In this document: positions 5,245 to 57,710 of the stretch, piece by piece
How the letters are laid out: every line of letters starts with the position of its first letter
Numbering within the stretch: position 1 is the first letter of the stretch
NCBI GenBank assembly: GCA_937890005.1
Contig: CALBZA010000040.1
Span: 4,434 to 68,433, forward strand
Direction: 5' to 3'
DNA from: an uncultured Verrucomicrobia subdivision 3 bacterium
Lineage (GTDB): Bacteria > Verrucomicrobiota > Verrucomicrobiia > Limisphaerales > DASXHY01
DNA: 64,000 bases
Notes under the pieces: generated by a model
Database searches by the model: none
What the model saw: the letters and a program-made list of their open reading frames with translations, nothing else
What the model was told of the DNA's origin: nothing
Program-made: the position numbers and the translations under genes

Positions 5245-6429
5245 ATGAAAAAAATCGACCTGCAGACCAAAACGTTTCCGGCGCGTGTAGCCGAACTCGG
5301 ATTTACCACTGATGTTCCGGCCGATTGGATCGTCCACGAGCTGCCAAATGAAATCCCGAACTTTTCCGATCCAACCGCGTTCGTGCCGCTCGCGGTGGTC
5401 ACCGCACCGCATGCCGCCATCATACTCGCGTTCGCGGCGCGTCCGGCCTATGACGACGGCACGCTTCACGAGTGGGCCTGGTATCATCTCAACCACAACA
5501 AAATGCAGGCCCGCGCCGCGGCGCAGGATCAGATTGGTGACATCCCGGCGTTTGTCGGCGAGGCGATCCAGCAATCGGACATGGGGCCGATGCTCGTCCG
5601 ATTTGCGTTCATTGAAGATGGAAACCGGCTGGTTAATCTGACTCTCACCGCGCCGGAAATGCTGGCGGACGCTGTGCAGGAAGTCTGGTTCGCCGTGCTC
5701 CGATCGTTTCGGCTGGAAACTCCGAAAGGTTCGCGCTTCAGCAAAGCGGGACAGCCGGAGCCGGTGGCGGAAACGAGCGTGCCGGTTGAATCGGTGAAGC
5801 CCTCCGAAACTCAGCCCGCTCAAACCAAAGCGAGCGGTTTCGCCGCTCACGCCCTTGCGAACGACGCTGCGTCAATCGATCCGGAACATCCAACAAACGC
5901 GAACCTTCGCAATCGGGGCATCGGGTTCGTTCCGAATGTCGCGGCGATTCACAACGAGGAAAAGCGCGCGACACTCGCTGCTGCGGCCATTGAAGCGTTC
6001 TTCGATGTTCCCTTGGGATGGCATGTGACCGACGACGGCAAACGGACGTTGATCTTCGAACCATCCGGTCAGGTGCAGATCAATCTCAATGTCATCCCGA
6101 CCGAAGGCGGAAGCCGTTCTGATGTGCTCGACGCCATCCAGGCTGAAACGGAGCAAAGCTATCCGCATCCGGAGTTCATGCGGCTCAACCAGGGCAACAT
6201 CGAAGCGCTCGGCGTGAGAAACATCCACGACGGCGACCAGCCGCTGGAGCAGTATCATCTCCTCGTTCCGTGGCACAACGATCGTTGTTATTTGCGCGCC
6301 CGGGTGACTTCGACGCCGGAACGTGCGGCCGATGCCTGCAATCTGGCCGAGTTGATCTTGAACAGCGTCTCTTTCGGCGGCACACCCGCGCATTCGCATC
6401 TGCCGAGTGAAGCGCATTCAGCTGCCTGA
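5245..6429 (+). CDS. hypothetical protein with two related domains joined by a P/E/S-rich linker
   Basis: AGGAG at 5236-5240 precedes ATG 5245. Internal repeat: TTDVPADWIVHELP...VLRSFRLE versus FFDVPLGWHVTDDG...ILNSVSFG. Confidence 0.6.
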   Translation: MKKIDLQTKTFPARVAELGFTTDVPADWIVHELPNEIPNFSDPTAFVPLAVVTAPHAAIILAFAARPAYDDGTLHEWAWYHLNHNKMQARAAAQDQIGDIPAFVGEAIQQSDMGPMLVRFAFIEDGNRLVNLTLTAPEMLADAVQEVWFAVLRSFRLETPKGSRFSKAGQPEPVAETSVPVESVKPSETQPAQTKASGFAAHALANDAASIDPEHPTNANLRNRGIGFVPNVAAIHNEEKRATLAAAAIEAFFDVPLGWHVTDDGKRTLIFEPSGQVQINLNVIPTEGGSRSDVLDAIQAETEQSYPHPEFMRLNQGNIEALGVRNIHDGDQPLEQYHLLVPWHNDRCYLRARVTSTPERAADACNLAELILNSVSFGGTPAHSHLPSEAHSAA

Positions 6430-7018: not shown

Positions 7019-8344
7019 ATGTCACAACTGCTTCGCAACAGTCCGGGTCTCCTCGCTTGGGTGGGGATCTTTGTCATCGCCACGTTCGTCTTCGGCATCA
7101 TCGGAATCATGATGAGCCGCTCGGGAACATCCTTGCGTCCCATCTATTGGATGGCGGGATTTCTTCTGCTGGTCGGCGCGCCGCAGTTCCTGGCACACCT
7201 TGCCTTTGCCATCGCGGCTGTGAAACGCGATGCACCGCGCGTGGCTGCAATGGAGCAATTGTTCAAATCGGACAACCTGGAAGCGCGACGGGATGCGGCA
7301 AAACTGTTGTTCGGACCGGACGCACATGCCGACCTTGTGGCCGACGCGCGACGTTTTTTCAGTCAGTCTATGGCCGATGCGGAGGCCGGGCAGTTCGCGA
7401 GTCTGCCGACCGGTGAAACCGTTCTGCTGGCGAAGTTCAAAGGTTACACCGGTGCGGAAAAGGCGTGGGTGCAGTATCTGCGCGAAACGGGTTTGAACCA
7501 GTTGGGGGGCAAGGGCGATTCCCAACGCGGTTTTGCTGTGACGCGTCCCGTTGGCGATCGCGCGTATGCGTTGCACATGGGCAACATGTTGGGTGTCTGG
7601 ACTGGTCCGAATGACGCCGCGATCCGGCAGCGAATGCTCGCTGGCGGATTCAAAATACCGTCGCGCGCGCCGTTGGACGGAGCCGGAGCCATCGCTCAAA
7701 ACGGTGCCAAATCCAGTCGATCTGGCACGAGTCCGGTTCGCATGGCTGCGATTGCCGGCGGCGTTGCGATCTATCTGCTTCTCGTGGTTGCCTACTTTTT
7801 CAAGGGAGCGGCCTGGGCTTCGGGTGCACCGGCCAAGCCGGGTGTGGTTGCGGTGAACTCAGAAGAACTCGCCGTGCGGCTCGAGTCGATCAATCAGCTG
7901 GACGTTCCATTCCGAATCGAAAAGGGCGAGAAGCCGAACGAATTTTTTGCAACGTGGCGTTATGCGGATGCGAAATGGATTGATCTCGCCCGCGCCCGTG
8001 GCATCAAGCGCACGTTCCGCATCCGACTCACCCTGGACGAATCGGCGAAGGTCGTTCGCGCCACGGATTACATCTCCAGTTACGACTGGTCGGTTGGACG
8101 TGGCGGTGCGGACATTCAGTGGAAGGCGAGTTCCGGGATCGTGTTCTTTCAAAAGGAACAGATGAAGGTTCTGGGCCTGCAGCTGGATCAGTCGGGCATG
8201 CCGAAGCCGGAACTTTCCTACAGCTACAACTTCGATCTCATGGAACTGAAGGAGCCGGTGAAGGCGATCATCACAGAGGCGGGCTGGGACTGGCGTCCGG
8301 TTGTCTGGCAGAGCCCGAAGTCCTTGCGCTGGCTGACGGAATGA
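7019..8344 (+). CDS. hypothetical membrane protein (2 N-terminal TM, soluble region, third TM, C-terminal globular domain)
   Basis: ORF track 7010..8344 starts at a TTG overlapping the upstream TGA; ATG 7019 lies 5 nt after that stop. The TM segments are LAWVGIFVIATFVFGIIGIMM, IYWMAGFLLLVGAPQFLAHLAFAIAAV and MAAIAGGVAIYLLLVVAYFF. Confidence 0.6.
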   Translation: MSQLLRNSPGLLAWVGIFVIATFVFGIIGIMMSRSGTSLRPIYWMAGFLLLVGAPQFLAHLAFAIAAVKRDAPRVAAMEQLFKSDNLEARRDAAKLLFGPDAHADLVADARRFFSQSMADAEAGQFASLPTGETVLLAKFKGYTGAEKAWVQYLRETGLNQLGGKGDSQRGFAVTRPVGDRAYALHMGNMLGVWTGPNDAAIRQRMLAGGFKIPSRAPLDGAGAIAQNGAKSSRSGTSPVRMAAIAGGVAIYLLLVVAYFFKGAAWASGAPAKPGVVAVNSEELAVRLESINQLDVPFRIEKGEKPNEFFATWRYADAKWIDLARARGIKRTFRIRLTLDESAKVVRATDYISSYDWSVGRGGADIQWKASSGIVFFQKEQMKVLGLQLDQSGMPKPELSYSYNFDLMELKEPVKAIITEAGWDWRPVVWQSPKSLRWLTE

Positions 8345-8427: not shown

Positions 8428-9501
8428 ATGCAAATTCTTGGAAACGCTTTTCTGGCTGTAGCGGCGCTGATCTACATCGTGCCGATCCAATGGCTCGCAT
8501 TTGAAAGTCCGGTTGGAAAACGTGACGAAGGCGGCGGCGCCGTCTGGACCGTGATTTTCATTCTCGTTCCATTCTGGCTGCTGATTGCAGGAGGTCTTTT
8601 CATTGTGACCGGCCGCGGTGGCCTGGAATGGATCGGTCGCGAACGGTGGATGCAACATCTGCTCGCGGCGACTGGCGTGATCGGATTGTTCATCGTCACC
8701 GCGTTCTGCTACGTCGGGAAGTTTCAGCCCCACAATCTGTTTCCGGCGGTGCTGCGACCGTTGATGCTGTTGATGCTGCTGGCCGTTCCGTTGATTGCGC
8801 TGTTTTTTTGCGCGATGACGTTGAATGCAGAGCTGCTGCCGAAAGTTCGTCCGCAGTTTTACCGAATTCCGTTCGCAGTGGTTGGAACGATTGGGCTCCT
8901 TGCGTTTGTTGGAGTGATTGGACAATCGCTGTTTTCCAATGTGTTGAGAAGAGGCGTTGCACTGACGAATGCCGTGTCGAGAGAGAGCGAACGCGACCGA
9001 CAGATTCTTGAACGAGTGGCGACGCTCGATCCGCACAAGGATTTCGCCGAGCTGATCGGATTCGCGAACCGTTATGAAAATCAAAAGATTCGCGAGCTGG
9101 CCATCGGCAAGGCGCAGTCGCATCCCGACTTCGATGCCGCGCTGGAGAAAGTTTTGCGCAGCGGCCTGGCGGATGAGGCGCTGACGTACCTTGATGCGTG
9201 CGACGTGCCGAATCCGGAACGTTTTGCAGACGCCGTGAATGCGGCCATCCGGAGGTGTACGGAGTGGGTTCGAGAATCGGTGGCCAACACCCACACGTTT
9301 CACACCAGTGCGTTCGACAGTTCCACGCGCCGGATTCTCTCGGTTGTGGATAAGTTTCGCGGGAATGGAGTTGATTATGTGCCCGCAATCCGCGAATACC
9401 GGAGAGCCATGGATTCGAAGCGAACAGTGGACGTGGAGTTCAACGCAAGGAGAACTCTCGACAAATGGCTCGCGAAACATTCGCATCCAGCAAAACCATG
9501 A
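8428..9501 (+). CDS. hypothetical membrane protein (N-terminal polytopic domain plus helical C-terminal domain)
   Basis: GGAGG lies 6 nt upstream of ATG 8428. There are about 5 TM helices, followed by ATLDPHKDFAELIGFANRYENQKIRELAI... This is a paralogue of the next gene. Confidence 0.6.
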   Translation: MQILGNAFLAVAALIYIVPIQWLAFESPVGKRDEGGGAVWTVIFILVPFWLLIAGGLFIVTGRGGLEWIGRERWMQHLLAATGVIGLFIVTAFCYVGKFQPHNLFPAVLRPLMLLMLLAVPLIALFFCAMTLNAELLPKVRPQFYRIPFAVVGTIGLLAFVGVIGQSLFSNVLRRGVALTNAVSRESERDRQILERVATLDPHKDFAELIGFANRYENQKIRELAIGKAQSHPDFDAALEKVLRSGLADEALTYLDACDVPNPERFADAVNAAIRRCTEWVRESVANTHTFHTSAFDSSTRRILSVVDKFRGNGVDYVPAIREYRRAMDSKRTVDVEFNARRTLDKWLAKHSHPAKP

Positions 9502-12119: not shown

Positions 12120-15100
12120 ATGCCAGTCGAACTCACAGAAGCGCTGCTCAGCAAGGCGGCGGGTTGGGACGTGATGAAGCGCGCGCGCGCGTACATCGAG
12201 CAGGGGCAGGTGCTCAGCTCGTTCTGGGAAGCGCCGCTGTTGCGTGGTGTGGTGCAGAGTGAAGTCTCGTTCCGGGCGTCGATGGTGATCAAGAGCGACA
12301 TCGACATCGAAAACCTCTGCACGTGCCGCGATGCGCGGGAATGGGGGAAAATCTGTGCCCACAGCGTGGCGGTCGGACTGCATTGGATTCAGGCACAGAA
12401 TGGTCCGGCGAAGGAACAGCCGGAACCGAAATCCGTTGGACAAAAGAGCGCTGCCGCGCCGGCGACGCGCAAAGTTTCATCGCTGCGACGCGAAGCCTCC
12501 CGAGAATCTGCCGAGTTGTTTCTCATCCTGCCGCCGAACGTGGATCAGGCCCTCGCCCGCGGCAAAGTGATGCTCGTTTTGGAAGCGAAGTGGGCGGGCG
12601 GACGGGTTCCCTTGAACGCGCTTCCGAAACACAAATCTTACGCGTTCGGAGAACAGGACTCGGCGATCATCGATTTCCTGGAGACACTTTCCAACGGCGA
12701 AACACCCGCGATCGTTCAGCTCGAAGCCACGCAATTCGCGACGCTGCTGACTCGACTTGTGGGGCATCCCAATCTGTCGCTCGGCAAATCGACTGAGGTG
12801 GAAGTCACAACCGAGCCGTTCGCTTTTCCCATCAAGGCCACTCTGGAGAGCAACGGGGAAATTGTTGTCGCGCCGAAAGGCAAAGCCGCCTTCGTTCCCG
12901 TCGGCGACTGGGTCTGGAGCAACAATCGCTTTCAGCTGTTTCAAATGCCGGAGTGGATGCGGGGAATCGTCCGCGGACCCGTGCGTGTTGCGCGCGCGCA
13001 GGTGCCGCAGTTTCTCAGTCAACAATGGCCGCAGCTGCTGTCGGCAGGCGCGGAGGCCAGCTTCAAGCTGGAAGACTTCACGCTGGAACCGCAGGCGCCG
13101 GAGTTCCTGCTCGAATTGAAAGGCGGTCTCGCTCAGCTCTCGGCATTGCTTCAGTGCCGATATGGTTCGCGGATCATGACGGTCGGCGTCACGACCGGGG
13201 ACGAAAGTGTGTGGCTGCCCGATCCTGAATCACCGACGCGTTATTCGACACGGGATGTCGCTGCCGAGCGCGCGGCGTTGGGACGATTGCAACGACACGG
13301 TTTTTCTGCACCAGACGGACAGGGGAAAATGCAATTGCTGGGACAGAATGCGGTGTTGAACTTCTTCGCCCGCGAATTTCCGAAGCTCGAACGCGAATGG
13401 AAGGTCACGCTGGAGGAGCGCCTTGACCGCAGCACGAAGCAGAACATCGAGCGAATCGAACCGCGTTTTGAGGTCACGTCGTCGGGTGTTCAATGGTTCG
13501 ATCTGGGCGTGGTGTTTGAGTCGTCGGGTGGCGAAAAGTTTTCACAGGCCGAGATTCAACGATTGCTGCTTTCGGGACAGAGTCATATGCGGTTGAAGAA
13601 TGGTCGCGTGGCGGTGATCGACACCGGCGCGGTGGAGGAACTGCAGGAGGTGTTGCTGGATTGCGCGCCGCAGCAGCATGCAAACGGGTATCGAATCAAC
13701 AACGCTCAGGCCGGTTTTCTTGAATCGACGCTGAAGCAGCATGCGGGATGGAAGTTTCAGGCACCGGCGCAATGGCGCGAGCGGGCGGCGAAGCAGAGCG
13801 GCGATGCAAAACTGGAATGTCCGCCACTGGGTGCGTTGGAGAATGTGCTGCGACCGTATCAGAAGCATGGCGTGGCGTGGCTGCGATTTCTTCGGGAGAA
13901 CGGTTTTGGCGGAATTCTTGCCGATGAAATGGGCCTGGGCAAAACGTTGCAAGCCCTCGCATTCCTTTGCTCTGTAAGCAATCGCCAATCGCCAATCGCC
14001 AATCGCCAATCAACTCCCCCCAATCTCCAATCAACATTCGACAATCCGCATTCCGCAATCCGCATTCCCCACCTGATCGTCTGTCCCACCAGTCTTGTGT
14101 TCAACTGGCTGGCCGAGGCGGCGAAGTTCACGCCGGAACTGAAGGTGCTCGCGCTGCATGGACCGGATCGACATCGCCACTTCGACCAGATCCCGCAGCA
14201 CGACATTGTCATAACGAGTTACGCTTTGATCCGTCGGGACGCGGAGCGATATCGCGGGTTTGAGTTCGACACGGTGGTGCTCGATGAGGCTCAGCACATC
14301 AAGAACCGGCAGACGCAGAATGCGCAAGCAGTGAAAGCGGTGCGTTCGAAGCATCGGCTGGTTCTGACTGGAACGCCGCTGGAAAATTCCGTGCTCGATC
14401 TCTGGTCGATCTTCGATTTCCTCATGCCCGGTTATTTGGGAACTGCGGCGGACTTCCGCGAGCGGTACGAACAGCCGATCACGCGCGACAAGGACGTGAA
14501 CGCCCAGGCACGACTGGCGCGGCGGCTTCGTCCGTTCATGTTGCGGCGATTGAAGAAGGATGTCGTCGCCGATCTTCCTGCAAAACTCGAACAGGTTTCA
14601 TTCTGCGAACTGACATCCGACCAACGCGCGGTGTATCAGCAGCTGTTGGAATCGACGCGCAATGAAGTTCTCGCGCACGCCGGAGAGAACACCGGCAGAA
14701 CCCGCATGCTGGCGTTGAACGCGCTGCTCCGCTTGCGACAGGTCTGCTGCGATCTTCGTCTGCTGCAATTGGACAAGGTGAATCCTGCCACCGCCTCCGG
14801 AAAGCTCGACCTGTTCAGCGAATTGCTGGAGGAAGTCATCGACGGCGGCCACCGCGTGCTGGTGTTCAGCCAGTTCGTCAGCATGCTGGCCTTGCTCAAG
14901 GAACGGCTGAAGGAGGAGAAAATCGAGTTCTGTTATCTCGATGGATCGACAACCGACCGGCGCGCCGTGGTGGAACGATTTCAGAATTCCTCCATTCCCG
15001 TCTTTCTCATCAGTCTCAAAGCCGGCGGCGTCGGACTCAACCTCACCGGTGCGGACACGGTCATGCACTTCGATCCGTGGTGGAACCCGGCGGTGGAGGA

Positions 15101-15296
15101 TCAGGCGACAGATCGCGCCCATCGAATCGGTCAGACGCGTGTGGTGACCAGCTACAAGCTGATCGCGCGCGACACGGTCGAGGAAAAGATTCTCACATTG
15201 CAGAACCGCAAGCGTGAGATCATCAAGGCGACCCTGTCCGAGGACGAATTCACGTCCGCGTTGAGCTGGGAGGAGATCCAGGAGCTGCTGATGTGA
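12120..15296 (+). CDS. SNF2-family DEAD/DEAH helicase with N-terminal SWIM zinc finger
   Basis: SWIM motif CTCRDAREWGKICAHSVAV. Helicase motifs LADEMGLGKT, LDEAQHIKN, LTGTPLENS, SLKAGGVGLNLTGADTV and QATDRAHRIGQ. Confidence 0.9.
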   Translation: MPVELTEALLSKAAGWDVMKRARAYIEQGQVLSSFWEAPLLRGVVQSEVSFRASMVIKSDIDIENLCTCRDAREWGKICAHSVAVGLHWIQAQNGPAKEQPEPKSVGQKSAAAPATRKVSSLRREASRESAELFLILPPNVDQALARGKVMLVLEAKWAGGRVPLNALPKHKSYAFGEQDSAIIDFLETLSNGETPAIVQLEATQFATLLTRLVGHPNLSLGKSTEVEVTTEPFAFPIKATLESNGEIVVAPKGKAAFVPVGDWVWSNNRFQLFQMPEWMRGIVRGPVRVARAQVPQFLSQQWPQLLSAGAEASFKLEDFTLEPQAPEFLLELKGGLAQLSALLQCRYGSRIMTVGVTTGDESVWLPDPESPTRYSTRDVAAERAALGRLQRHGFSAPDGQGKMQLLGQNAVLNFFAREFPKLEREWKVTLEERLDRSTKQNIERIEPRFEVTSSGVQWFDLGVVFESSGGEKFSQAEIQRLLLSGQSHMRLKNGRVAVIDTGAVEELQEVLLDCAPQQHANGYRINNAQAGFLESTLKQHAGWKFQAPAQWRERAAKQSGDAKLECPPLGALENVLRPYQKHGVAWLRFLRENGFGGILADEMGLGKTLQALAFLCSVSNRQSPIANRQSTPPNLQSTFDNPHSAIRIPHLIVCPTSLVFNWLAEAAKFTPELKVLALHGPDRHRHFDQIPQHDIVITSYALIRRDAERYRGFEFDTVVLDEAQHIKNRQTQNAQAVKAVRSKHRLVLTGTPLENSVLDLWSIFDFLMPGYLGTAADFRERYEQPITRDKDVNAQARLARRLRPFMLRRLKKDVVADLPAKLEQVSFCELTSDQRAVYQQLLESTRNEVLAHAGENTGRTRMLALNALLRLRQVCCDLRLLQLDKVNPATASGKLDLFSELLEEVIDGGHRVLVFSQFVSMLALLKERLKEEKIEFCYLDGSTTDRRAVVERFQNSSIPVFLISLKAGGVGLNLTGADTVMHFDPWWNPAVEDQATDRAHRIGQTRVVTSYKLIARDTVEEKILTLQNRKREIIKATLSEDEFTSALSWEEIQELLM
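13979..14069 (+). repeat. heptanucleotide tandem array, 13 x CAATCNN, in-frame within the SNF2 CDS
   Basis: caatcgc x4, then caatcaa ctccccc caatctc caatcaa cattcga caatccg cattccg caatccg cattccc. The 7-nt phase is kept over 91 nt. Confidence 0.9.
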
Positions 15297-22453: not shown

Positions 22454-24895
22454 TCATTGGAACGCAAGAGCGCCGGGCGCGAACCCAAGCCGGTCGCCGA
22501 GCACGAGCAGTTCCTTCAAACAATTGGCTGCCTCCTCATCCCCCGTTTCCGACCGTTGCTTGAGTTCGGGTAATGTGGTTCTCCGGATGTTCCAGAAAAC
22601 GTTCTGCACTTCGGCCACGTTGAGGCCAAGTGGCAGGGGCATCATGATCCGCGCGATTTCCTGAAGTTCCTTGACGGCATCGAGGTTATTTGGATTCGCG
22701 GCAATTTCATGGATCGTTTTCTCCATCCGGTTCTTTACGGCGTAACTGATGTCGGCATCAAGAACGGCCGGACCCCGCGACTGGGCGTCGTTCACAAGGC
22801 TCGAGAGTTGTTCGATATCCGTGTGGCCGTTGGTGAACTGGCGGCGGATGTTGCTGTGCAAGGTCAGATCCCATGCAACCTGCAATCCGCCCGGCAGGGG
22901 CGCGCCCGCGCTTTCCAGAAACTTCATCAGCGGCGCGTAACGGTCTGTGATGTTCTTGAATCGACCTTCGAGATCTTCGCGGGCTGACGCAACAATCTCG
23001 TTCAAAATGCGCCGCTGCTCGTCCTTGAACAGCGAACGCAATGTGTACGACGAGCCGCCAAAGTGCTGGTCGATCAGGCGGATGATCTGCGGCAGATCGA
23101 CGATTTCAAAAGCGCCCTGAAGCTGGCGGGTCATTTCGTCGAACGCCTCCTGCGATGGAAATTTTCCGACGCCGCCGATCAGATTGTGTTCGCCCATGTA
23201 GAGAATCGCATAGGCAAGATGTTCCGTTTCCTCGGTGATTTCCGACATGACACAGACCCGTCCCGTCGCGAGTTTGGTTTTTCCGGTGGTGAGGGTCTGG
23301 CGTTGCTCGTCTTCGAACGTGAACGAGAAGACCCGCGTGCGTTTGTCGTATTCCTTGAAGAGTGAGCTGATGGCGTAGTGGGCAACGGCCTTCTTCCAGT
23401 CGATCATCGCGGGTTTCACGAACTTCTCATAGATGACCCGGCCGTCCTTGTGTTCGTGAATGTTGCTCTTCGCGTGTTCCAGTCGCTCGAGGAATGGAGG
23501 CTCGAAATCGCGGTCGAACAATTCGTTTGCGAGCTGAATCACGCGCGCGGCGTATTGAATCACCTGGACGGTTTCGATTCCTGAAAGTTCGTCGAAGAAC
23601 CAGCCGCAGCTGGTGTACATGAGCATGGCGTGCCGTTGCAGTTCCAGAAGTTTGAGCGCAACGATCTTTTCGGCATCATTCAGTTCCCCTTTCGCCTGGG
23701 CGGCAAAGAAGCGGTTTCGGCTTTCTTCCGACCGGTCGAGGATGATTTCGATGTAGGCGTTGCGCGCCTCCCACGGATCGCGCAACAGTTCTCCGGCCCG
23801 CGCGGCGTAAAGCGGTTCCAGTTCATCGCGGAGCCAGTCCAGAGCCGCCCGCAACGGAGCGCGCCATTTCTGATTCCAATCGCCATGGCCGCCGCTGTTG
23901 CAGCCGCAATCCTCCTTCCAGCGTCCGACGCCGTGCGAACAGCTCCAGGCGCTGCCTTCGTGAATCTGCGCTTCGTATTCCGGCGGATGTTTCTCCAGGA
24001 ACTCGCCGTAGTTGGTGAGTTTCGCGAGGTTGTTCTGCTGAATGTGTTCCAGCGCGTAGGCGAGCGCCATCTCACCGTGGCGATGGTGATGCCCGTACGA
24101 TTCGCCATCGGTGGCGATGTGAACCAGTTGATCGGCGCTGTCGTCATCGGTAAATGCGCCAAGAATCCGGCTGGCAAAACGTTCCCCGCTGACGAGCAAC
24201 TTTTCAAAGGCGACCGCCTGCGATACCGGCGCGTCGTAGAAGAACACGCTGATCTTCCGGCCCGACGGGAGATTAATGAGATAAGGGCGCCTGGGATCGA
24301 TGCGTGCGCCATTCGCGTCATTCCATTCCTTATCGCCGAGTTTTCGAACGGCGCTTGCCTGAAACGGCGAGAGAATCGTGAAGAGGATTCCCTGTTCCGC
24401 GAGCGCTTCCAATGTCGGTGTATCGGCCGCGGTTTCGGACAGCCAGATGCCCTCGGGCTTTCGTCCGAAACGCGATTCAAAATCACGAATGCCCCAAACG
24501 ATCTGCGTGGTTTTGTCGCGCTGGTTCGCGAGCGGCATGATCATGTGATTGTAAACCTGCGCGAGTGCGGAGCCGTGGCCGGAGAAACGTTCGCGGCTGA
24601 TCTTGTCCGCGAGAACGATGGCGTCGTGGGTCTCCGGCATCTTGTCCTTCATCCACGCCAGCAGCGTTGGACCGATGTTGAAGCTGATCTTGGAGAAGTT
24701 GCTGGTGATTTTCTCAATCCGGCCTTCGCCATTGATGATCCGTGCGGCGGCATTGGGCGCGTAACATTCGACGGCGATGCGCTCGTTCCAATCGTGCCAC
24801 GGCGCGGCGGAATCCTGAATTTCAACCGACTCCAGCCACGGATTCTCACGGGGAGGCTGATAGAAATGTCCGTGGATGCAGATAAATTTTTCCAT
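22454..24895 (-). CDS. glycoside hydrolase family 57 / DUF3536 protein
   Basis: I trimmed the track start of 24979 to ATG 24895. MEKFICIHGHFYQPPRENPW is the GH57 N-terminus, and the 813-aa length fits the GH57+DUF3536 architecture. Confidence 0.8.
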   Translation of the reverse strand: MEKFICIHGHFYQPPRENPWLESVEIQDSAAPWHDWNERIAVECYAPNAAARIINGEGRIEKITSNFSKISFNIGPTLLAWMKDKMPETHDAIVLADKISRERFSGHGSALAQVYNHMIMPLANQRDKTTQIVWGIRDFESRFGRKPEGIWLSETAADTPTLEALAEQGILFTILSPFQASAVRKLGDKEWNDANGARIDPRRPYLINLPSGRKISVFFYDAPVSQAVAFEKLLVSGERFASRILGAFTDDDSADQLVHIATDGESYGHHHRHGEMALAYALEHIQQNNLAKLTNYGEFLEKHPPEYEAQIHEGSAWSCSHGVGRWKEDCGCNSGGHGDWNQKWRAPLRAALDWLRDELEPLYAARAGELLRDPWEARNAYIEIILDRSEESRNRFFAAQAKGELNDAEKIVALKLLELQRHAMLMYTSCGWFFDELSGIETVQVIQYAARVIQLANELFDRDFEPPFLERLEHAKSNIHEHKDGRVIYEKFVKPAMIDWKKAVAHYAISSLFKEYDKRTRVFSFTFEDEQRQTLTTGKTKLATGRVCVMSEITEETEHLAYAILYMGEHNLIGGVGKFPSQEAFDEMTRQLQGAFEIVDLPQIIRLIDQHFGGSSYTLRSLFKDEQRRILNEIVASAREDLEGRFKNITDRYAPLMKFLESAGAPLPGGLQVAWDLTLHSNIRRQFTNGHTDIEQLSSLVNDAQSRGPAVLDADISYAVKNRMEKTIHEIAANPNNLDAVKELQEIARIMMPLPLGLNVAEVQNVFWNIRRTTLPELKQRSETGDEEAANCLKELLVLGDRLGFAPGALAFQ

Positions 24896-25053
24896 GGCCA
24901 CCAGTCTCCGTTTTCCACTCCGGCCAACAATAGGGGGCTTTCCCCGTTCGAATGGGAGCGCGGCAGCCGCGGAGGTCACGAGGCGGAACTGTCGGGGAGA
25001 GAACGTCCGCCTTCGCCCGTCGCGAGCTACAGTTTTCTGGAACTGTTCTTAAC

Positions 25054-27663
25054 TCAACGCCATTCGTGCTTCGGATACCGACGCTGCAGCTCAGATTTGA
25101 TCTTCGGATAATGCTCGCGCCAGAAGTTGGAGAGATCCTGAGTGACCTGAACCGGCTTCATTCCGGGAGTCAAAATGTGAACGAGCACCGGCACGCGGCC
25201 CATCGCGATCTTCGGCGTTTGTGTCACATCGTAAAGCTCCTGAATGCGCATCGCGATGTGCGGAGGATTGCCGGGTTCGTAGGTGATTTTTGGAGTGCGT
25301 CCGTTTGGAAGCGAAAGGCGTTCCGGCGCATGTTTGTCGAGAAGTTCGCGCTGAGCCTGCGACAGCCACGATTTCACGACCGGTTTGACGTCCTTGTCCT
25401 TGATGTCCTTGTAGCCAATCGCGCCGTGACAAAGTTGTTCAATCAACGTCTTCCGATCGGCATCGGTAATTGGAGGCAGTTCAAACTCCGGACACCACTT
25501 GCTCAACAGGTTCAATCGGAGAATCCATTGTTCGACCGTGTGATCCCATTCCTTGAGCGTCAGGCGCTCCGCGATGACTTCCTCGGCGAGCAATCGCGCC
25601 GCGGCATCGGCGGGCGGCGGTTCGATGCGTTTTGCCGAGAGGGCGAGTCCGCGGAAGCGTGAAAGTTCCGCGGCGACGACGCGTTTCTGCGTCGCATCGA
25701 ACATCACGCGCAGGTCTCGTTCGATGTCATCGGGAAAGAGTTCGTGCAGCCATTCCGGTTGAATGGCGGTGGCCAGCGAAAGGATGGTATTCACTTCCTT
25801 GTCCTTGCCTTCGACTTCACGAACTTCTGCCGCGACAAAAAGCTGGCTGTGTTGAACGGTGCTTTCGCGGGCCAGCACGCCGCGACGGCCGTGAACGAGT
25901 TCGCATCGAAGCGTTCCCTGATCGAGCCGGTGTGCCACACGGTCGGAGAATCCAATCAACACGCATTTCTGCAAGGCCTCGTCCTTCACTTCGCGCGGCT
26001 GGACGTCGAGCCCTTCGCGTTCGGCGATGCGTAGGAAATGGTCGAGCAGGGGACCGACCTGTCGTGCAGTGACGGCGTGAATGCCAAGCTTGCGGCAGGC
26101 ATCCAGGCGAAACTGATTCTTCGCCGCAAACGTCCACGCGCGCATCAGAATCCAGAAATCCGAGGAAGCCTTTTCGCCGAGCAAATCTTCGCGCAACTGA
26201 TTCGTTGCCTTGTCCACGCCGCGCAACAGGAGATCGCGTCCCTGCGTGAGTGCTGCGACCAATGCGGCCTGATAAACACAGCCGTATTCCTGTGCCGCCA
26301 GCAACATGCGCGCGTAACGCGGGTGGACCGGAAACGCGAGCATCTTTCGACCAACGGGAGTGATCTGCAACGTTTGTGGTGCAGGTTTCAGCGCGCCCAA
26401 ATCGGCCAGCAATTCTTCCGCATGCGCGAGGCTTTGTTCGTCGGGCGGTTCAAGCCAGCGGAACTTGCGCAAATCTTCAATGCCCGCGGCCTTCAACGTA
26501 AGAACCACTTCGGCCAGGTCGAGCCGCTTGATCTCGGGCAGTTCCTGTGCGGCGCGATGCGAATGTTCCTCACGCGACCAGAGCCGCATGCAAACGCCCG
26601 GCGCAGTGCGGCCCGCGCGGCCGGCGCGTTGATCGGCTGAGGACTGGCTGATCTTTTCGACGAGCAGCGTATTGATGCCGCGATAGGCATCGTATCGCGG
26701 AATGCGCGCGAGCCCGGAATCGATCACGAGCCGGACGCCGTCAATCGTGAGCGACGTTTCCGCGACATTTGTGGAAACGACAACTTTCGGCTGACGATAG
26801 CGCGCGACGGCTGCGTCCTGGTCCTTTGGCGACAGTTCGCCGTGCAATGGGAGCAGAATAAAACCGCGCGATTCGTCCGTGTGCCGAATGGCTTCAATCG
26901 TTTGAAAAATCTCAAATCCGCCCGGCATGAACACGAGCACGTCGCCGGTTCCACCGGATCGAACGTATCGGCTGAACGCATCCGCCGCCTGATCCCAGAT
27001 CGGTCGCCTGTCGGTGTAACTCGGTTCGGATGCGTAACGGATCTCGACCGGAAAGGTGCGTCCGGCGGAGGTCAGGACGGCGCAGGGATGACGGGTGATT
27101 GCGGATTGCGGATTGTGGATTGCGGATTTCTCCCGCTGACGGGTTTGGGAGAAGTAGTCGGCGAGCTGGTCGGCGTCCAGAGTCGCGGACATCACAGCGA
27201 GTTTCAGGTCGGGCCGTTGTGATTCCTGGACGTCGAGGGCGCGGGCGAGCGTGATGTCTCCGTAAAGATGGCGTTCATGAAACTCGTCGAACAGCAGCGC
27301 GGTGACGCCTTTGAGCGAAGGATCGTCAATCATCTGCCGCAACAGGACGCCTTCGGTGACAAAGCGAATCTTCGTGTCGCGCGACGTGACGTTTTCGAAA
27401 CGGATTTGATAGCCGACTTCTTTGCCGAGCTGGACGCCAAGTTCTTCCGCGACGCGTGTGGCGAGCAATCGTGCGGCGAGCCGGCGCGGTTGGAGAATGA
27501 CGACCTGTCCGTTCTCAAGCAGTCCGGACTGTAAAAGCATTTGCGGAACCTGCGTGGTTTTGCCGGAGCCGGTTGGTGCGGAGAGAATGAGGCGGTTGCC
27601 CGACCGCAGCGATTCGATGATCTGCGGCTGGATTTCCCAAATGGGAAGCGAGGTATCAGGCAC
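25054..27663 (-). CDS. hrpB: ATP-dependent RNA helicase HrpB
   Basis: APTGSGKTTQ, DEFHER, SATL and QRAGRAGR motifs, with a long HrpB-type C-terminal region. It is 869 aa. Confidence 0.9.
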   Translation of the reverse strand: MPDTSLPIWEIQPQIIESLRSGNRLILSAPTGSGKTTQVPQMLLQSGLLENGQVVILQPRRLAARLLATRVAEELGVQLGKEVGYQIRFENVTSRDTKIRFVTEGVLLRQMIDDPSLKGVTALLFDEFHERHLYGDITLARALDVQESQRPDLKLAVMSATLDADQLADYFSQTRQREKSAIHNPQSAITRHPCAVLTSAGRTFPVEIRYASEPSYTDRRPIWDQAADAFSRYVRSGGTGDVLVFMPGGFEIFQTIEAIRHTDESRGFILLPLHGELSPKDQDAAVARYRQPKVVVSTNVAETSLTIDGVRLVIDSGLARIPRYDAYRGINTLLVEKISQSSADQRAGRAGRTAPGVCMRLWSREEHSHRAAQELPEIKRLDLAEVVLTLKAAGIEDLRKFRWLEPPDEQSLAHAEELLADLGALKPAPQTLQITPVGRKMLAFPVHPRYARMLLAAQEYGCVYQAALVAALTQGRDLLLRGVDKATNQLREDLLGEKASSDFWILMRAWTFAAKNQFRLDACRKLGIHAVTARQVGPLLDHFLRIAEREGLDVQPREVKDEALQKCVLIGFSDRVAHRLDQGTLRCELVHGRRGVLARESTVQHSQLFVAAEVREVEGKDKEVNTILSLATAIQPEWLHELFPDDIERDLRVMFDATQKRVVAAELSRFRGLALSAKRIEPPPADAAARLLAEEVIAERLTLKEWDHTVEQWILRLNLLSKWCPEFELPPITDADRKTLIEQLCHGAIGYKDIKDKDVKPVVKSWLSQAQRELLDKHAPERLSLPNGRTPKITYEPGNPPHIAMRIQELYDVTQTPKIAMGRVPVLVHILTPGMKPVQVTQDLSNFWREHYPKIKSELQRRYPKHEWR
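27097..27131 (-). repeat. heptanucleotide array (about 5 x CAATCCG on the coding strand), in-frame within hrpB
   Basis: The + strand reads gattgcg gattgcg gattgtg gattgcg gatttct. It is translated on the minus strand as EKSAIHNPQSAITRH. Confidence 0.85.
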
Positions 27664-27687
27664 AGGAACGAAAACGGAAACGTCGGA

Positions 27688-27993
27688 CTAAACGTGCCGC
27701 AGGACCAGCGCAACGAGCGTGACGATGAGCATCATTCCGGCGGGCATGAATTTCCTGGTTTTTGCCAGCCGAATTCCGAACACCACGAGCAGGAGAGTCA
27801 TCACGACGTCCGCAATGCCGCGGGCGGCGGGAGGTGAAAGGAGATTGGGAATGGCCGTGAGAATCAGGACTGCGGCGAACGCCACCGACATGATGAGGGA
27901 CACCTGGCTCTTGCCCTTGAGGAAGCCGATCAGGCCGCCAATGATGAGCAGCACGATGTAAATCCACAGCACTTTGGTGGCGAAATCTTGCAT
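27688..27993 (-). CDS. TMEM14-family small membrane protein
   Basis: The 101-aa product has 4 predicted TM helices (IVLLIIGGLIGFLKG..., VAFAAVLILTAI, VVMTLLLVVFGIRL, MMLIVTLVALVL). The family call is from memory. Confidence 0.5.
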   Translation of the reverse strand: MQDFATKVLWIYIVLLIIGGLIGFLKGKSQVSLIMSVAFAAVLILTAIPNLLSPPAARGIADVVMTLLLVVFGIRLAKTRKFMPAGMMLIVTLVALVLRHV

Positions 27994-28008
27994 GGGGCGA
28001 AAGGTGCC

Positions 28009-28188
28009 TCAACCGGGCGCGACGTCCAAGCTCAGAATTTCCCCGTCCTCGCACTCCACCGTGACTTCAAAAGGCCGGCAGCAAACCTCGCAATCACTAG
28101 TGAACCGCTGGCTCGGCTGGTCGGTGTCGATGTTTACGGTCGATTCCTGGCCGCAGAACGGGCACTGGATGCTCTCGGGAATTTCCAC
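28009..28188 (-). CDS. CPXCG-motif cysteine-rich small protein (59 aa)
   Basis: This gene is absent from the ORF track, possibly because it falls under a length cutoff. From GTG 28188 it translates as VEIPESIQCPFCGQESTVNIDTDQPSQRFTSDCEVCCRPFEVTVECEDGEILSLDVAPG*. The CPFCG + CEVCC pairs suggest a zinc ribbon. It ends 15 nt upstream of the TMEM14 gene. Confidence 0.6.
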   Translation of the reverse strand: MEIPESIQCPFCGQESTVNIDTDQPSQRFTSDCEVCCRPFEVTVECEDGEILSLDVAPG

Positions 28189-37386: not shown

Positions 37387-38040
37387 TCAGGCCTTGGCTT
37401 CTGCCGGTTGTTCCGCTTCCTCGGGCTCTTCCTCCCGTTCAGCAGGTTCCTTCTTTTCCTCGGCCGATTCCGCAGTCGAAAGTTTCATGGCACCGACGAA
37501 GATGCCTGTAAACAAACCCGCGCTCAGGAAGGTGTTGCGGAAAAACGTCCACGTTTCAGGCCAGCCACCGGTGCCTTTGATCAGGGCCCAAAGCCAGCCG
37601 AAGAAGGTTTTTGTGTACTCAGGATTGTTGAATGGATTGAAGAGCCACGCCGCTGTGTTTGTGACGAAATAAAAGATCAATGCGCCGAGCAAACCGCCGC
37701 CGAGCAGGGAAGCGAACGAGTGCTTCGGTTTGAAAAATTTCCCGAGGAGAATGAGCAGCACCCAGGCAACGTAATTGAAAATCTGGTAGCGAAGCATCGG
37801 CCACGCCCAGACGTCGTAGCCGAGCGCCAGTTGATAATAAAGATTCAGGCCGATGTCCGTGAGAACCATCGCCGAAAGCGGAAGCCACCAGGCGGTTTGC
37901 CGGGAGAGATAAACGCCGCTGCAGAAGAGCAGGGCGTAGGCGGCGCTGAAGTTTCCGAATTCGCGTGAAAGCATTCCTGGAATTCGCGACAACGCGAATA
38001 TCACGATAAACAACAGCAACGGCCCGATCTTCTTCATCAC
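37387..38040 (-). CDS. DUF6580-family membrane protein with an acidic C-terminal tail
   Basis: ALSRIPGML..FGNFSAAYALLFCSGVYL...WWLPLSAMVLTDIGLN resembles DUF6580. The family call is from memory. The tail is AEEKKEPAEREEEPEEAEQPAEAKA. Confidence 0.55.
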   Translation of the reverse strand: MMKKIGPLLLFIVIFALSRIPGMLSREFGNFSAAYALLFCSGVYLSRQTAWWLPLSAMVLTDIGLNLYYQLALGYDVWAWPMLRYQIFNYVAWVLLILLGKFFKPKHSFASLLGGGLLGALIFYFVTNTAAWLFNPFNNPEYTKTFFGWLWALIKGTGGWPETWTFFRNTFLSAGLFTGIFVGAMKLSTAESAEEKKEPAEREEEPEEAEQPAEAKA

Positions 38041-38096: not shown

Positions 38097-38117
38097 GATT
38101 GGCGATTGGCGATTGGA
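38097..38117 (-). repeat. heptanucleotide array (3 x CAATCGC on the minus strand), intergenic
   Basis: The + strand reads gattggc gattggc gattgga, the reverse complement of the SNF2 unit. It lies 57-77 nt upstream of the DUF6580 start. Confidence 0.8.
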
Positions 38118-38263: not shown

Positions 38264-39082
38264 ATGCAGCAACTGTTCGACATCATTCACGAAGATTCCG
38301 AACTCCTGGTCATCAACAAACCGGCAGGCCTCGTCTGTCATCCGACCAAGGGTGACGAATATTCCAGTCTGATCAGCCGCGTAAGGCTCTATCTCGGGCC
38401 GAACGCCCGCGCGCATCTCGTCAACCGTCTCGATCGCGAAACCAGCGGGGTGACCCTTGTCGCGAAGACCGATGAAGCCGCACGCGAGCTGCGGCGATTG
38501 ATGGAGGGGCGGGCAATCGAAAAGGATTACATCGCAATCGTTCATGGCCACGTGCAAGACGATTACGGAATGGTCGATGCCCCGATCGGGAAAGATGAAC
38601 AGAGCCGCGTGGCTGTCAAAGATTGCGTCCGTCTAGACGGCGCTCCATCACAGACAGAGTTCTGGGTGGAAAAACGCTTCACAAAGTTCGTGCCCGCAGT
38701 CGTCGGTACGAGTTCGAAATTCTCATTGGCAGCCACAGCTTCGAACCAAACACATGTTTGCGTTTCCGAAGACTTGACGGAGCAGCCTTTCACGTTGCTT
38801 CGACTGAAGCCATTGACCGGTCGAAAGCATCAGATCCGTATTCACCTCGCGCACCTCGGACATCCCATTGTCGGTGACAAAATCTACGGCGGTGACGAGG
38901 AGATTTACCTCGCCTTTGTGGAGTATCGTTTGACGGAGAACCAAAGGGCGCGCCTCATCGTGGAGAACCATGCGCTCCATGCATCCAGTCTGCGTTTTCA
39001 ATGGAAGGACAACGGCATGACGTTCCGATGCGTGCCGGAGCGTGGATTCCAGCTTTTTTGCGATTCGACTTTCCGTGACTGA
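38264..39082 (+). CDS. RluA-family pseudouridine synthase
   Basis: LVINKPAGLVCHP, HLVNRLDRETSG (catalytic Asp) and TGRKHQIRIHLAHLGHPIVGDKIYG. Confidence 0.85.
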   Translation: MQQLFDIIHEDSELLVINKPAGLVCHPTKGDEYSSLISRVRLYLGPNARAHLVNRLDRETSGVTLVAKTDEAARELRRLMEGRAIEKDYIAIVHGHVQDDYGMVDAPIGKDEQSRVAVKDCVRLDGAPSQTEFWVEKRFTKFVPAVVGTSSKFSLAATASNQTHVCVSEDLTEQPFTLLRLKPLTGRKHQIRIHLAHLGHPIVGDKIYGGDEEIYLAFVEYRLTENQRARLIVENHALHASSLRFQWKDNGMTFRCVPERGFQLFCDSTFRD

Positions 39083-39197: not shown

Positions 39198-40370
39198 GTG
39201 CCTGTCATTCCGAAAGAAATGCGCGCGGCGGTTTACCGCGGTCCCAACGATCTTCAGATCGAGACTGTCCCCGTTCCAAAAATTCGGCTCGGCGAACTGC
39301 TTGTTAAAGTTGCCGTTTGCGGTGTCTGTCCCACCGACATAAAGAAAATTCACCACGGCACTGTTCCGCCGCCTCGCATTTTTGGTCATGAAACGTCGGG
39401 AACGATTGTGGCCATTGGCGGCAGCCGCTCGAAACTCGAAATTCAAAGCTCGGAACTCAGAATTGGTGACCGCGTTGCCCTGCATCACCATGTTCCCTGT
39501 ATGGCGTGCCATGCCTGCCGGCATCGCGCTTTCGCGCAGTGCGAGACCTACAAGAGGACCGGGATCACGGCCGGATTCGAACCTGCCGGGGGCGGATTTG
39601 CCGAGTACGTGCGCGTCATGCCCTTTGTGCTCCCCGGCGTGGTGAAGATTCCGCCGCGAAACACATTTGAAGAAGGGGCAATGTTGGAGCCGGTGAATAC
39701 TGTTCTGAAAGCCGTGAAACGTCTGGCGCTTCTGGCTGGCGACACGGTTCTCGTGGCGGGGCAGGGTCCAATCGGCCTCATGTTCACGCGGATTTTGCAG
39801 CTGAGCGGGATGAATGTGTTGGCAACGGACCTGTTGCCATCCCGACTCGAACTCGCCCGGCAGTTTGGCGCGAAGTGGGCGGTAAAGCCTGAGGAGGTTT
39901 CAGGTTTTGAGTTTCGCCTTTTGAGCCAGTGGAGGGAAAAAACGTTTCGAAAGGAAACAAAGTCGAAAGAACGGCGATTGGCTGGTGGCGGCCGGCGATT
40001 ACACAGAAGTTACATCGACGCCGCTGTCCTGGCGGTTCCATCCGATGCGGCATTGAAACAGGCGATGGAAGTCGTGCGTGGAGCCGGGCAGATTTTGTTG
40101 TTCGCCCACACGAAGCGGGGAGCGCTGACGGAGGTTGATCTGGCGTCGGTTTGCGTTGACGAGAAGGATCTGATTGGAAGCTATTCCGCGGATTTCACCC
40201 TTCAAAAAGAAGTGGCAAAGCTGGTGTTTTCGAGAAAGCTCGACGTTCGCCCGTTGATTTCCCATCGCTTTCAGCTCTCCGAAACTGCCGCCGCCGTAAA
40301 CCTCGCCGCTCATCCGACGCCGGAGTCCTTGAAGGTTGTGGTGGAGCAGAGCAAAGTGAGGCGTCCTTAG
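39198..40370 (+). CDS. zinc-dependent alcohol/threonine dehydrogenase-family oxidoreductase (MDR)
   Basis: VAVCGVCPTDIKK, GHETSGTIVAIG, GDRVALHHHVPCMACHAC and VLVAGQGPIGLM. The GTG at 39198 is the longest start. ATG 39219 (MRAAVYRG...) looks more canonical. Confidence 0.8.
   Translation: MPVIPKEMRAAVYRGPNDLQIETVPVPKIRLGELLVKVAVCGVCPTDIKKIHHGTVPPPRIFGHETSGTIVAIGGSRSKLEIQSSELRIGDRVALHHHVPCMACHACRHRAFAQCETYKRTGITAGFEPAGGGFAEYVRVMPFVLPGVVKIPPRNTFEEGAMLEPVNTVLKAVKRLALLAGDTVLVAGQGPIGLMFTRILQLSGMNVLATDLLPSRLELARQFGAKWAVKPEEVSGFEFRLLSQWREKTFRKETKSKERRLAGGGRRLHRSYIDAAVLAVPSDAALKQAMEVVRGAGQILLFAHTKRGALTEVDLASVCVDEKDLIGSYSADFTLQKEVAKLVFSRKLDVRPLISHRFQLSETAAAVNLAAHPTPESLKVVVEQSKVRRP
39424..39465 (+). 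repeat. heptanucleotide array (6 units, GAAACTC family), in-frame within the ADH CDS
   Basis: gccgctc gaaactc gaaattc aaagctc ggaactc agaattg totals 42 nt and is translated as SRSKLEIQSSELRI. Confidence 0.8.
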
Positions 40371-48847: not shown

Positions 48848-48867
48848 CAATCCAATCCAATCCAATC
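48848..48867. repeat. pentanucleotide tandem repeat, 4 x CAATC (GATTG on the gene strand)
   Basis: caatc caatc caatc caatc, a perfect repeat, ends 2 nt upstream of the ATG at 48845 on the minus strand. Confidence 0.9.
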
Positions 48868-48986: not shown

Positions 48987-49060
48987 TGGCTGTCCGACAT
49001 GGATTCGAACCATGACAAAAGCCTCCAAAGGGCCTTGTGCTACCATTACACCATCGGACA
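48987..49060 (-). tRNA. tRNA-Gln (anticodon UUG), CCA encoded
   Basis: Hand-folded on the minus strand. Acceptor stem UGUCCGA/UCGGACA. D arm GUGU..GCAC. Anticodon stem AGGCC/GGCUU with loop CU-UUG-GA. T arm CAUGG-UUCGAAU-CCAUG. Discriminator G plus CCA. It is 74 nt. Confidence 0.9.
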
Positions 49061-57611: not shown

Positions 57612-57639
57612 ATTTATGATTTATGATGTTTGATTTATG
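57612..57639. repeat. heptanucleotide array (4 x ATTTATG-like), intergenic
   Basis: atttatg atttatg atgtttg atttatg begins 9 nt after the GH35 stop. An inverted partial copy, tcataaatc, lies at 57699-57707, just before the DUF58 ATG. Confidence 0.8.
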
Positions 57640-57710
57640 ATCTGGATGGTTGAAAACCCACGATGGCGATGTGTTCAAATCATCCATTGTAGATCATAGT
57701 CATAAATCCC

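Follow-up and report, generated by a model that had tools for sequence, protein, structure and literature searches.

How does a housekeeping helicase come to carry a tandem array of 7-nucleotide (nt) units in the middle of its reading frame? The question is raised by hrpB in a stretch of 64,000 nt from an uncultured Verrucomicrobia subdivision 3 bacterium (contig CALBZA010000040.1); "the window" denotes this full stretch, and coordinates are 1-based on its forward strand. The gene (25054-27663, minus strand), identified as an open reading frame (ORF) with TIGR01970, Pfam and E. coli HrpB matches, encodes the 869-amino-acid (aa) DEAH-box ATP-dependent helicase HrpB, and it contains a CAATCCG-type heptamer array of 4.6 copies with a degenerate fifth unit (27097-27131, minus strand; sequence reading, tandem-repeat calls and shuffles). 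The array is real, in frame, lineage-specific, hypervariable among orthologues and a member of a genome-wide family. We consider it likely that the protein merely tolerates it in a permissive loop, and that it is a passenger, probably a neutral one, derived from a family of dispersed heptanucleotide repeats.

On the forward strand, positions 27097-27131 read gattgcg gattgcg gattgtg gattgcg gatttct. The unit GATTGCG corresponds to CAATCCG on the hrpB coding (minus) strand, and a variant unit, CAATCCA, differs by one G>A change. Tandem Repeats Finder (TRF) calls the tract at 27097-27128 with a period of 7, 4.6 copies, 92% matches and a score of 57. A preliminary description of this DNA, made from the letters alone, had read five heptamers at 27097-27131; all of its details stand except for the fifth unit, which is degenerate and matches at 4 of 7 bases. 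The tract is imperfect, with just two identical units in a row. Within HrpB it is translated as ...REKSAIHNPQSAITRH..., also given as ...QREKSAIHNPQSAITRH..., and is flanked by SATLDADQLADYFS and PCAVLTSAGRTFPVEIRY. Heptamer arrays in the window exceed chance: there are two with a period of 7 (three at a looser cut-off), as against 0.0 (0.01) in 100 codon-block shuffles. The pattern CAATCNNCAATC, allowing up to one mismatch, matches the window 22 times where 8.4 +/- 2.3 matches are expected, a count reached in none of 100 shuffles. The pattern CAATCCGCAATCCG with up to three mismatches is not enriched in the window (20 matches, 14.5 expected), and the enrichment is thus visible with the tighter pattern only.

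The host gene is intact. Its 869 codons contain neither a stop nor a frameshift, the helicase motifs GSGKTT, DEFHER and SAT are present, and the protein scores 656 bits against the TIGR01970 equivalog model (cut-off 546.15) over residues 6-868. Precomputed Pfam matches comprise DEAD, Helicase_C, HA2 and HrpB_C. E. coli HrpB (6EUD/6HEG) matches with E = 2e-119 in two stretches, and is gapped across the segment that holds the array. The protein cluster to which the window HrpB belongs consists of one identical 869-aa protein and one fragment; a second source, JGI, has an identical 869-aa HrpB on a 72-kb contig, which may derive from the same sample.

In protein terms, the excess over the canonical 28-aa connector from SATL to GRxFPV is an insert of 20 codons (QTRQREKSAIHNPQSAITRH; 27088-27147, minus strand). 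It forms aa 173-192 of HrpB, lies between motif III (SAT) and GRTFPVE, and brings the SATL-to-GRxFPV segment of the window to 48 aa; its length of 60 nt is a multiple of three. An AlphaFold model of HrpB, based on 55 close homologues, is of poor quality as a whole (mean predicted local distance difference test score, pLDDT, 61) and was used only locally, being usable in the first RecA-like domain. There it shows a helix at residues 164-172, no secondary structure at 173-194 and a strand at 195-198, with pLDDT below 50 at residues 178-188. Because of the local confidence of the model and the pattern of insertions and deletions among homologues, we place the insert, which probably forms part of a surface loop, between the helix that follows motif III and the beta-strand that comes after it in the helicase core. 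An insert within the folded core would have contradicted the preliminary description; the model, weak overall, predicts the insert as coil outside the core, between helix 164-172 and strand 195-198. A hairpin or structured RNA was considered at this site and rejected: folding the RNA of 27070-27160 (minus strand) gives a z of -0.13, which is not significant, the sole Rfam match in the window is a tRNA, with none at the hrpB array, and the window has no inverted repeats resembling repetitive extragenic palindromic (REP) elements, nor any inverted partner at or near the array. The 60-nt insert lacks a GTAG/CTAC tag and so does not qualify as a GTAG/CGTC REP (REPIN-like) element.

Comparison with orthologues shows where such inserts occur. 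The preliminary description took HrpB proteins to have only a short connector here, and in a set of 80 verrucomicrobial species-representative genomes this is the norm: SATL-to-GRxFPV spans 27-28 aa in 57 of the 80 loci, as it does in E. coli HrpB, against 48 aa in the window. All relatives at 56-63% identity, from Opitutae, Chthoniobacterales, Kiritimatiellia and Lentisphaerae bins, are among these 57 and lack an insert. The 23 loci with inserts, of 4-65 aa, all fall within the closer subdivision-3/Limisphaerales clade, and among the 80 species loci no distant taxon shares the segment without 7-nt periodicity. At closer range, a search of 5.8 billion proteins yielded a set of 120 HrpB homologues of 76-100% identity, 804-917 aa long and all from Verrucomicrobiae-type metagenome genomes. 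In a MAFFT alignment of these sequences, length differences cluster at two places, query residues 172-194 and ~429-432. The first site is empty in 71 of the 120 (e.g. QYLKPRVLTSEGR; close homologues of 76-88% identity) and carries 7-38 extra residues in the remaining 49, among which are heptamer arrays that differ from the window array in unit and copy number.

In four genomes, heptamer arrays start at a shared codon of hrpB that directly follows (T/C)T(C/T) TCC. The unit is CAATCCG in the window (4.6 copies), CGCAATC in L081 (P0020; 84% identity to the window HrpB; 4 copies), CCGAAAT in L082 (P0044; 81%; 5-5.3 copies) and AAATCGG in L024 (69%; 4.5 copies). All orthologous hrpB arrays that we have seen are in frame, and the variation in unit number at the orthologous site (4-5.3) is one observed among species. 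In L083/P0003, the closest relative, the site has a short stretch, tcaaaatcgaaaagcggcggccgg, which looks like a decayed array. Going beyond the preliminary description, we find that insertion here is not limited to heptamers and that the site, as a general hot spot, is open to palindromic REP elements as well: GTAG...CTAC palindromes, single or dimeric, are read in frame there in many other orthologues (L003, L010, L015 and L025), other inverted repeats occupy it in L002, L013 and L017, and L005 has a GTAG dimer with heptamer-like units in its spacer. In a neighbour-joining tree of the conserved columns, inserts are scattered within a tight clade that otherwise lacks them, and we therefore conclude that inserts have been gained or exchanged repeatedly at the hrpB site.

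The hrpB locus is one of several at which such sequences are read in frame. A composite heptamer array (13979-14068, plus strand; TRF, reading and homologue comparison) lies in the ORF of a SNF2-family helicase (12120-15296) and consists of CAATCGC x4.7, degenerate units, and then CAATCCG CATTCCG CAATCCG CATTCCC, sense and in frame. As the preliminary description had stated, the CAATCCG unit and its sense orientation are common to the hrpB array and the distal half of this array 13 kb away, and the encoded peptides are alike, that of SNF2 reading ...DNPHSAIRIPH. The SNF2 insert stands between GLGKTLQxLAFL and PHLIVCPTS (motifs I and Ia), at a position that is hypervariable in 120 homologues; judged by these motifs, it appears to occupy a helix-to-strand connector analogous to that of hrpB. 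The insert found most often among SNF2 homologues consists of two heptamer arrays in inverted orientation, GCGGAGT/GCGGAAT x4 ... ATTCCGC/ACTCCGC x4, as exemplified by L084 (11804-11941), which has GCGGAGT GCGGAAT GCGGAGT GCGGAGT, ~24 nt, and ATTCCGC ATTCCGC ACTCCGC ACTCCGC. The right arm of this inverted pair has its counterpart in the distal half of the window SNF2 array. We also note that the pair amounts to a hairpin with heptamer-repeat stems whose in-frame translation is SAECGVRN...PHSALRTPH; in L085 the SNF2 site is at 5471-5632.

Within hrpB itself there is a second hot spot for insertions and deletions at 26362-26388 (aa 426-434), where the window has ~3 extra residues. Close homologues have 0-60 extra residues at this place, made up of GTAG/REP-like palindromes, which give peptides such as QAFQPAGSGDFPVAS and GDRQDACPT, or of heptamer arrays, namely AAATCCG x4.3 in L036 (5378-5407) and CCCTCAA x3.7 in L079 (11320-11345). 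In RecJ (Pfam DHH, DHHA1, RecJ_OB), two verrucomicrobial genomes have arrays of unrelated units at one loop, after LVNP and before ELCSxGLAFKLA: AAGTCCG/AAATCCG in L013 (3640-3675) and CTCAACN in L042 (4449-4481).

Heptamers of this family occur throughout the genome and in many metagenomes, and are not peculiar to the two helicases to which the preliminary description had drawn attention. For periods of 4, 5, 6, 7, 8 and 9, the arrays with three or more copies in 1.5 Mb of related loci together with the window number 35, 5-6, 10-11, 23-24, 2 and 3, so that period 7 is over-represented relative to the neighbouring periods 5, 6, 8 and 9. At least 120 metagenome stretches (L086-L205) contain exact CAATCCG x3.9, inside and outside coding frames; the family statistics that follow rest on contigs among the matches listed. 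Such contigs contain 4, 7, 240, 21 and 5 arrays with periods of 5, 6, 7, 8 and 9, respectively, and many of the arrays are inverted pairs (examples of such pairs away from the SNF2 site are those in L031, L115, L119, L150 and L086). In a strict reading-frame test based on G+C content at third codon positions (GC3), 17 of 88 arrays lie within a continuous coding frame, 50 beside a gene on one side only, 16 where there is no coding signal, and 5 between flanks in different frames. Arrays in coding-like frames have 4-7 units; others have up to 24. Taken as a family, the arrays have the properties of dispersed tandem-heptanucleotide elements: head-to-tail 7-nt units in unlinked copies, both intergenic and intragenic. 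The hrpB insert has, in addition, those of an in-frame insertion like the Rickettsia palindromic elements (RPE), being missing in many orthologues, a multiple of three in length, carried by an intact host gene and, according to the weak model, outside the core.

Other features of the window and of related contigs deserve mention. An intergenic CAATCGC x2.9 array called by TRF (38097-38116, minus strand) lies between the divergent genes for a DUF6580 protein (37387-38040, minus strand) and a pseudouridine synthase (38264-39082, plus strand). A decayed array, CTCGAAA x4.4 with 70% matches (39428-39458), is in frame in the ORF of a zinc-dependent alcohol dehydrogenase (39198-40370), where it encodes SRSKLEIQSSELR directly before the GDRV motif and constitutes the third in-frame heptamer-derived segment of the window. 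Two further short arrays are intergenic: the pentamer CAATC x4 (48848-48867), with the start of a Yip1-domain gene on one side and a tRNA gene (48990-49060, minus strand) on the other, and ATTTATG x4.3 (57612-57641), which no ORF spans. The neighbourhood of hrpB (22454-28054) has the order Tmemb_14 (27688-27993, minus strand), hrpB and a GH57/DUF3536 glycoside hydrolase gene (22454-24979, minus strand), an order also found on the contig of the closest relative, L083. One verrucomicrobial contig, L073, is extremely rich in heptamers, with arrays at 5273-5395, 7238-7289, 7700-7757 and 9387-9446; back-to-back arrays on it differ in unit (GGAGTGG, GTCGAAG, CGAACTC/CGATCTC, CAGACCC), and it has an inverted pair, GTCTGGC xN ... 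CCAGACG xN, ~400 nt apart.

How, then, might the array have come to reside in hrpB? The preliminary description had favoured the insertion or expansion of a genomic repeat over a feature of the protein, and the alignment, the predicted structure, the relatives and the SNF2 site all support that choice. We propose that a dispersed family of heptanucleotide repeats of ~4-5 units litters the genomes of subdivision 3/Limisphaerales-like and many environmental bacteria, and that one copy would have lodged at the permissive loop site of hrpB. The ribosome would read through the insert, passing through all three frames in every 21 nt, and so produce a polar peptide of 7-aa periodicity, (K/N)(S/P)..QSAI... 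The insert would persist because the loop tolerates additional residues, because 60 nt is divisible by three and because CAATCCG is free of stop codons in all three phases. A filter imposed by stop codons was also tried as an explanation for the choice of unit, and proved too weak: ~75% of random tandem heptamers are stop-free in one orientation and ~60% in both. After its arrival, the array would undergo microsatellite-like turnover of unit number and sequence and decay by point mutation, and we infer that slipped-strand mispairing resizes it.

Several observations weigh against this reading of the array as a neutral passenger. No near-identical strain with another unit number, which would point to ongoing slippage at the hrpB locus, was found, the sole other protein record being identical in sequence. 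Near-neutrality for HrpB is inferred. The structural model is poor overall, and "surface loop" leans on its local confidence and on the indel pattern. In the metagenome set, CAATCCG is the unit of 15 of 58 arrays situated more than 300 nt from a CAATCCG array on the same contig, and 7 further distant arrays of the 58 have close variants of it, as compared with unit sharing in 1 of 24 cases in unselected loci; genomes seem to have preferred heptamer units. Copy number does not fall monotonically and instead peaks at ~5, with 35, 67, 11, 5 and 3 arrays at 4, 5, 6, 7 and 8 units. Simple local slippage does not account for recurring units and a peak near five, and together they suggest a discrete element or a sequence-specific generator. 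A dedicated process that makes or spreads 7-nt-periodic DNA is worth stating, if tentatively, as the source of the hrpB, SNF2, recJ and zinc-dependent alcohol dehydrogenase arrays. Its output would be discrete arrays of ~5 units, along with arrays paired in inverted orientation, in genome-specific unit "dialects", and these would settle time and again in permissive loops. The hrpB array, the heptamers of cyanobacteria known as short tandemly repeated repetitive sequences (STRR) and the heptanucleotide elements of Geobacter, both taken up below, would then share one mechanism other than ordinary replication slippage.

A rival view holds that the hrpB array is half, or a remnant, of a mobile REP-like palindromic element with heptamer stems, which transposition or recombination brought ready-made to the hot spot instead of its growing there. 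We regard this origin as unlikely. It would fit the inverted heptamer pair that is the commonest SNF2 insert in our comparison (L084) and the frequency of such pairs elsewhere, the acceptance of GTAG REPs at the hrpB site, the identical units at unlinked loci and the array-size peak near five units. It would also fit the 8-nt direct repeat ACCCGTCA that, on our reading of the sequence, brackets the window array (3' copy, 27089-27096; 5' copy, 27137-27144; both minus strand). The hrpB array, however, has no inverted partner, GTAG tag or significant hairpin, and no transposase candidate is linked to the arrays, though no search aimed at transposases was made. Among the matches listed, the longest word shared by the flanks of 104 CAATCCG metagenome arrays is no longer than in displaced controls, on which ground a target-site duplication was rejected as a feature of the family. 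As a separate observation, the insert contains GGGAGAA, the complement of the native TTCTCCC that directly precedes it on the coding strand (27128-27134/27147-27153). This pair and the ACCCGTCA bracket may have been left behind by template switching or by a duplication in place, or they may be due to chance.

Explanations that assign the array a role are far harder to sustain. It is very improbable that it acts as a phase-variation switch, in which gain or loss of one 7-nt unit would frameshift hrpB. Seven is not a multiple of three, so any change of one unit would truncate HrpB, a design found in E. coli neuO, whose AAGACTC tract is ON only at unit numbers divisible by 3 (PMC13001214), and 5 of 88 metagenome arrays among the matches listed have a coding-like signal in different frames on either side. 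Those five may, however, simply lie between adjacent genes; the hrpB tract is short, imperfect and mid-gene in a housekeeping helicase; its orthologous counterparts are uniformly in frame while many orthologues have no tract; and similar tracts also turn up between genes and in housekeeping genes unrelated to it. A regulatory role in cis, as DNA or RNA, for a site that overlaps the coding sequence seems to us highly improbable as well. This was the interpretation given to the 4x and 5x heptanucleotide elements of Geobacter, annotated as putative global regulatory elements (PMC2700814), and the window array at 38097-38116 does lie in a divergent promoter region; against it, units are not the same at orthologous sites or from one genome to another, neither an Rfam match nor a stable fold is found at hrpB, and many arrays are mid-gene. 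We attach almost no credence to selection for the insert at the protein level, where it would serve the HrpB of this lineage as a functional linker or an interaction motif, despite the convergence of peptides from different arrays on polar NP(Q/K)S(A/E)IR-like heptads. Orthologues that are 76-88% identical differ in whether they have an insert, in its length (4-65 aa) and in its sequence class, the segment is predicted to be disordered, and unrelated proteins show the same peptide because they contain the same DNA repeat. A preference for the sense strand, counted in favour of this view, appears in the looser GC3-frame test (38 sense and 16 antisense arrays) but not in the stricter one (9 and 8), and a sense-strand bias is thus not established.

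If the array is a passenger from a dispersed family, several practical consequences follow. In annotation, peptides such as NPQSAIRNPQS, KSEIRNPKS and CGLRIADCGL in verrucomicrobial and environmental proteins should be recognised as translated repeat DNA and not as domains, and length differences among HrpB, SNF2 and RecJ orthologues as the product of hot spots for insertion. The recurrence of the sites is of use to protein science, since it shows which loops of helicase cores are permissive by nature. Taken together, empty orthologous sites and those with a perfect array, a decayed array or a REP hairpin provide a natural time series for the origin and turnover of heptanucleotide repeats, and it is the combination of recurrent hot spots and 7-nt periodicity that gives the locus its wider interest.

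The literature that we searched held no description of such repeats in Verrucomicrobiota, and string searches with the repeat and its peptides returned nothing relevant. The STRR heptamers of cyanobacteria, reportedly described by Mazel et al. in 1990, are said to form genome-wide families of tandem heptanucleotides, each genome having several types of unit, and to occur mostly between genes and in heterocystous cyanobacteria only; we know of no established mechanism for their generation. Here, in contrast, the host belongs to the Verrucomicrobiota and several copies are translated in frame.

Three further systems bear comparison with the hrpB array. The multicopy elements of Geobacter metallireducens comprise a 4x GGGACCG/GGACCGG class (49 copies) and a 5x MTYCTGA class, located within and between genes (Aklujkar et al. 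2009, PMC2700814). Like the family described here, they are dispersed and consist of four to five tandem 7-nt units; they differ in belonging to another phylum, in having a GC-rich unit and in having been interpreted as regulatory RNA or DNA, and that study contains no orthologue comparison that places them as in-frame loop insertions at recurrent hot spots. Intragenic GTAG- and CGTC-tagged REPs reach their highest intragenic GTAG count in Opitutus terrae and include RNA helicases among their hosts (Di Nocera et al. 2013, PMC3733652). They and the RPEs resemble the hrpB insert as short repeats read in frame in conserved genes, many of which function in DNA or RNA processing (PMC3733652), whereas the window insert is a direct tandem repeat with no palindrome, GTAG/CGTC tag or hairpin. 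In neuO of the E. coli K1 prophage CUS-3, a perfect, phase-variable heptanucleotide variable-number tandem repeat, 5'-AAGACTC-3', is present in 3-53 units at the 5' end of the gene (PMC13001214). As in hrpB, a 7-nt coding repeat is read in all three phases to give a heptad peptide, and a full-length product requires a frame-compatible repeat; the hrpB tract differs in its 4.6 imperfect units, in its mid-gene position and in showing no length variants, with one identical record available for comparison. The hrpB array probably has no function for HrpB and is of a known type, allied to the Geobacter elements, the STRRs and the intragenic REP and RPE insertions.

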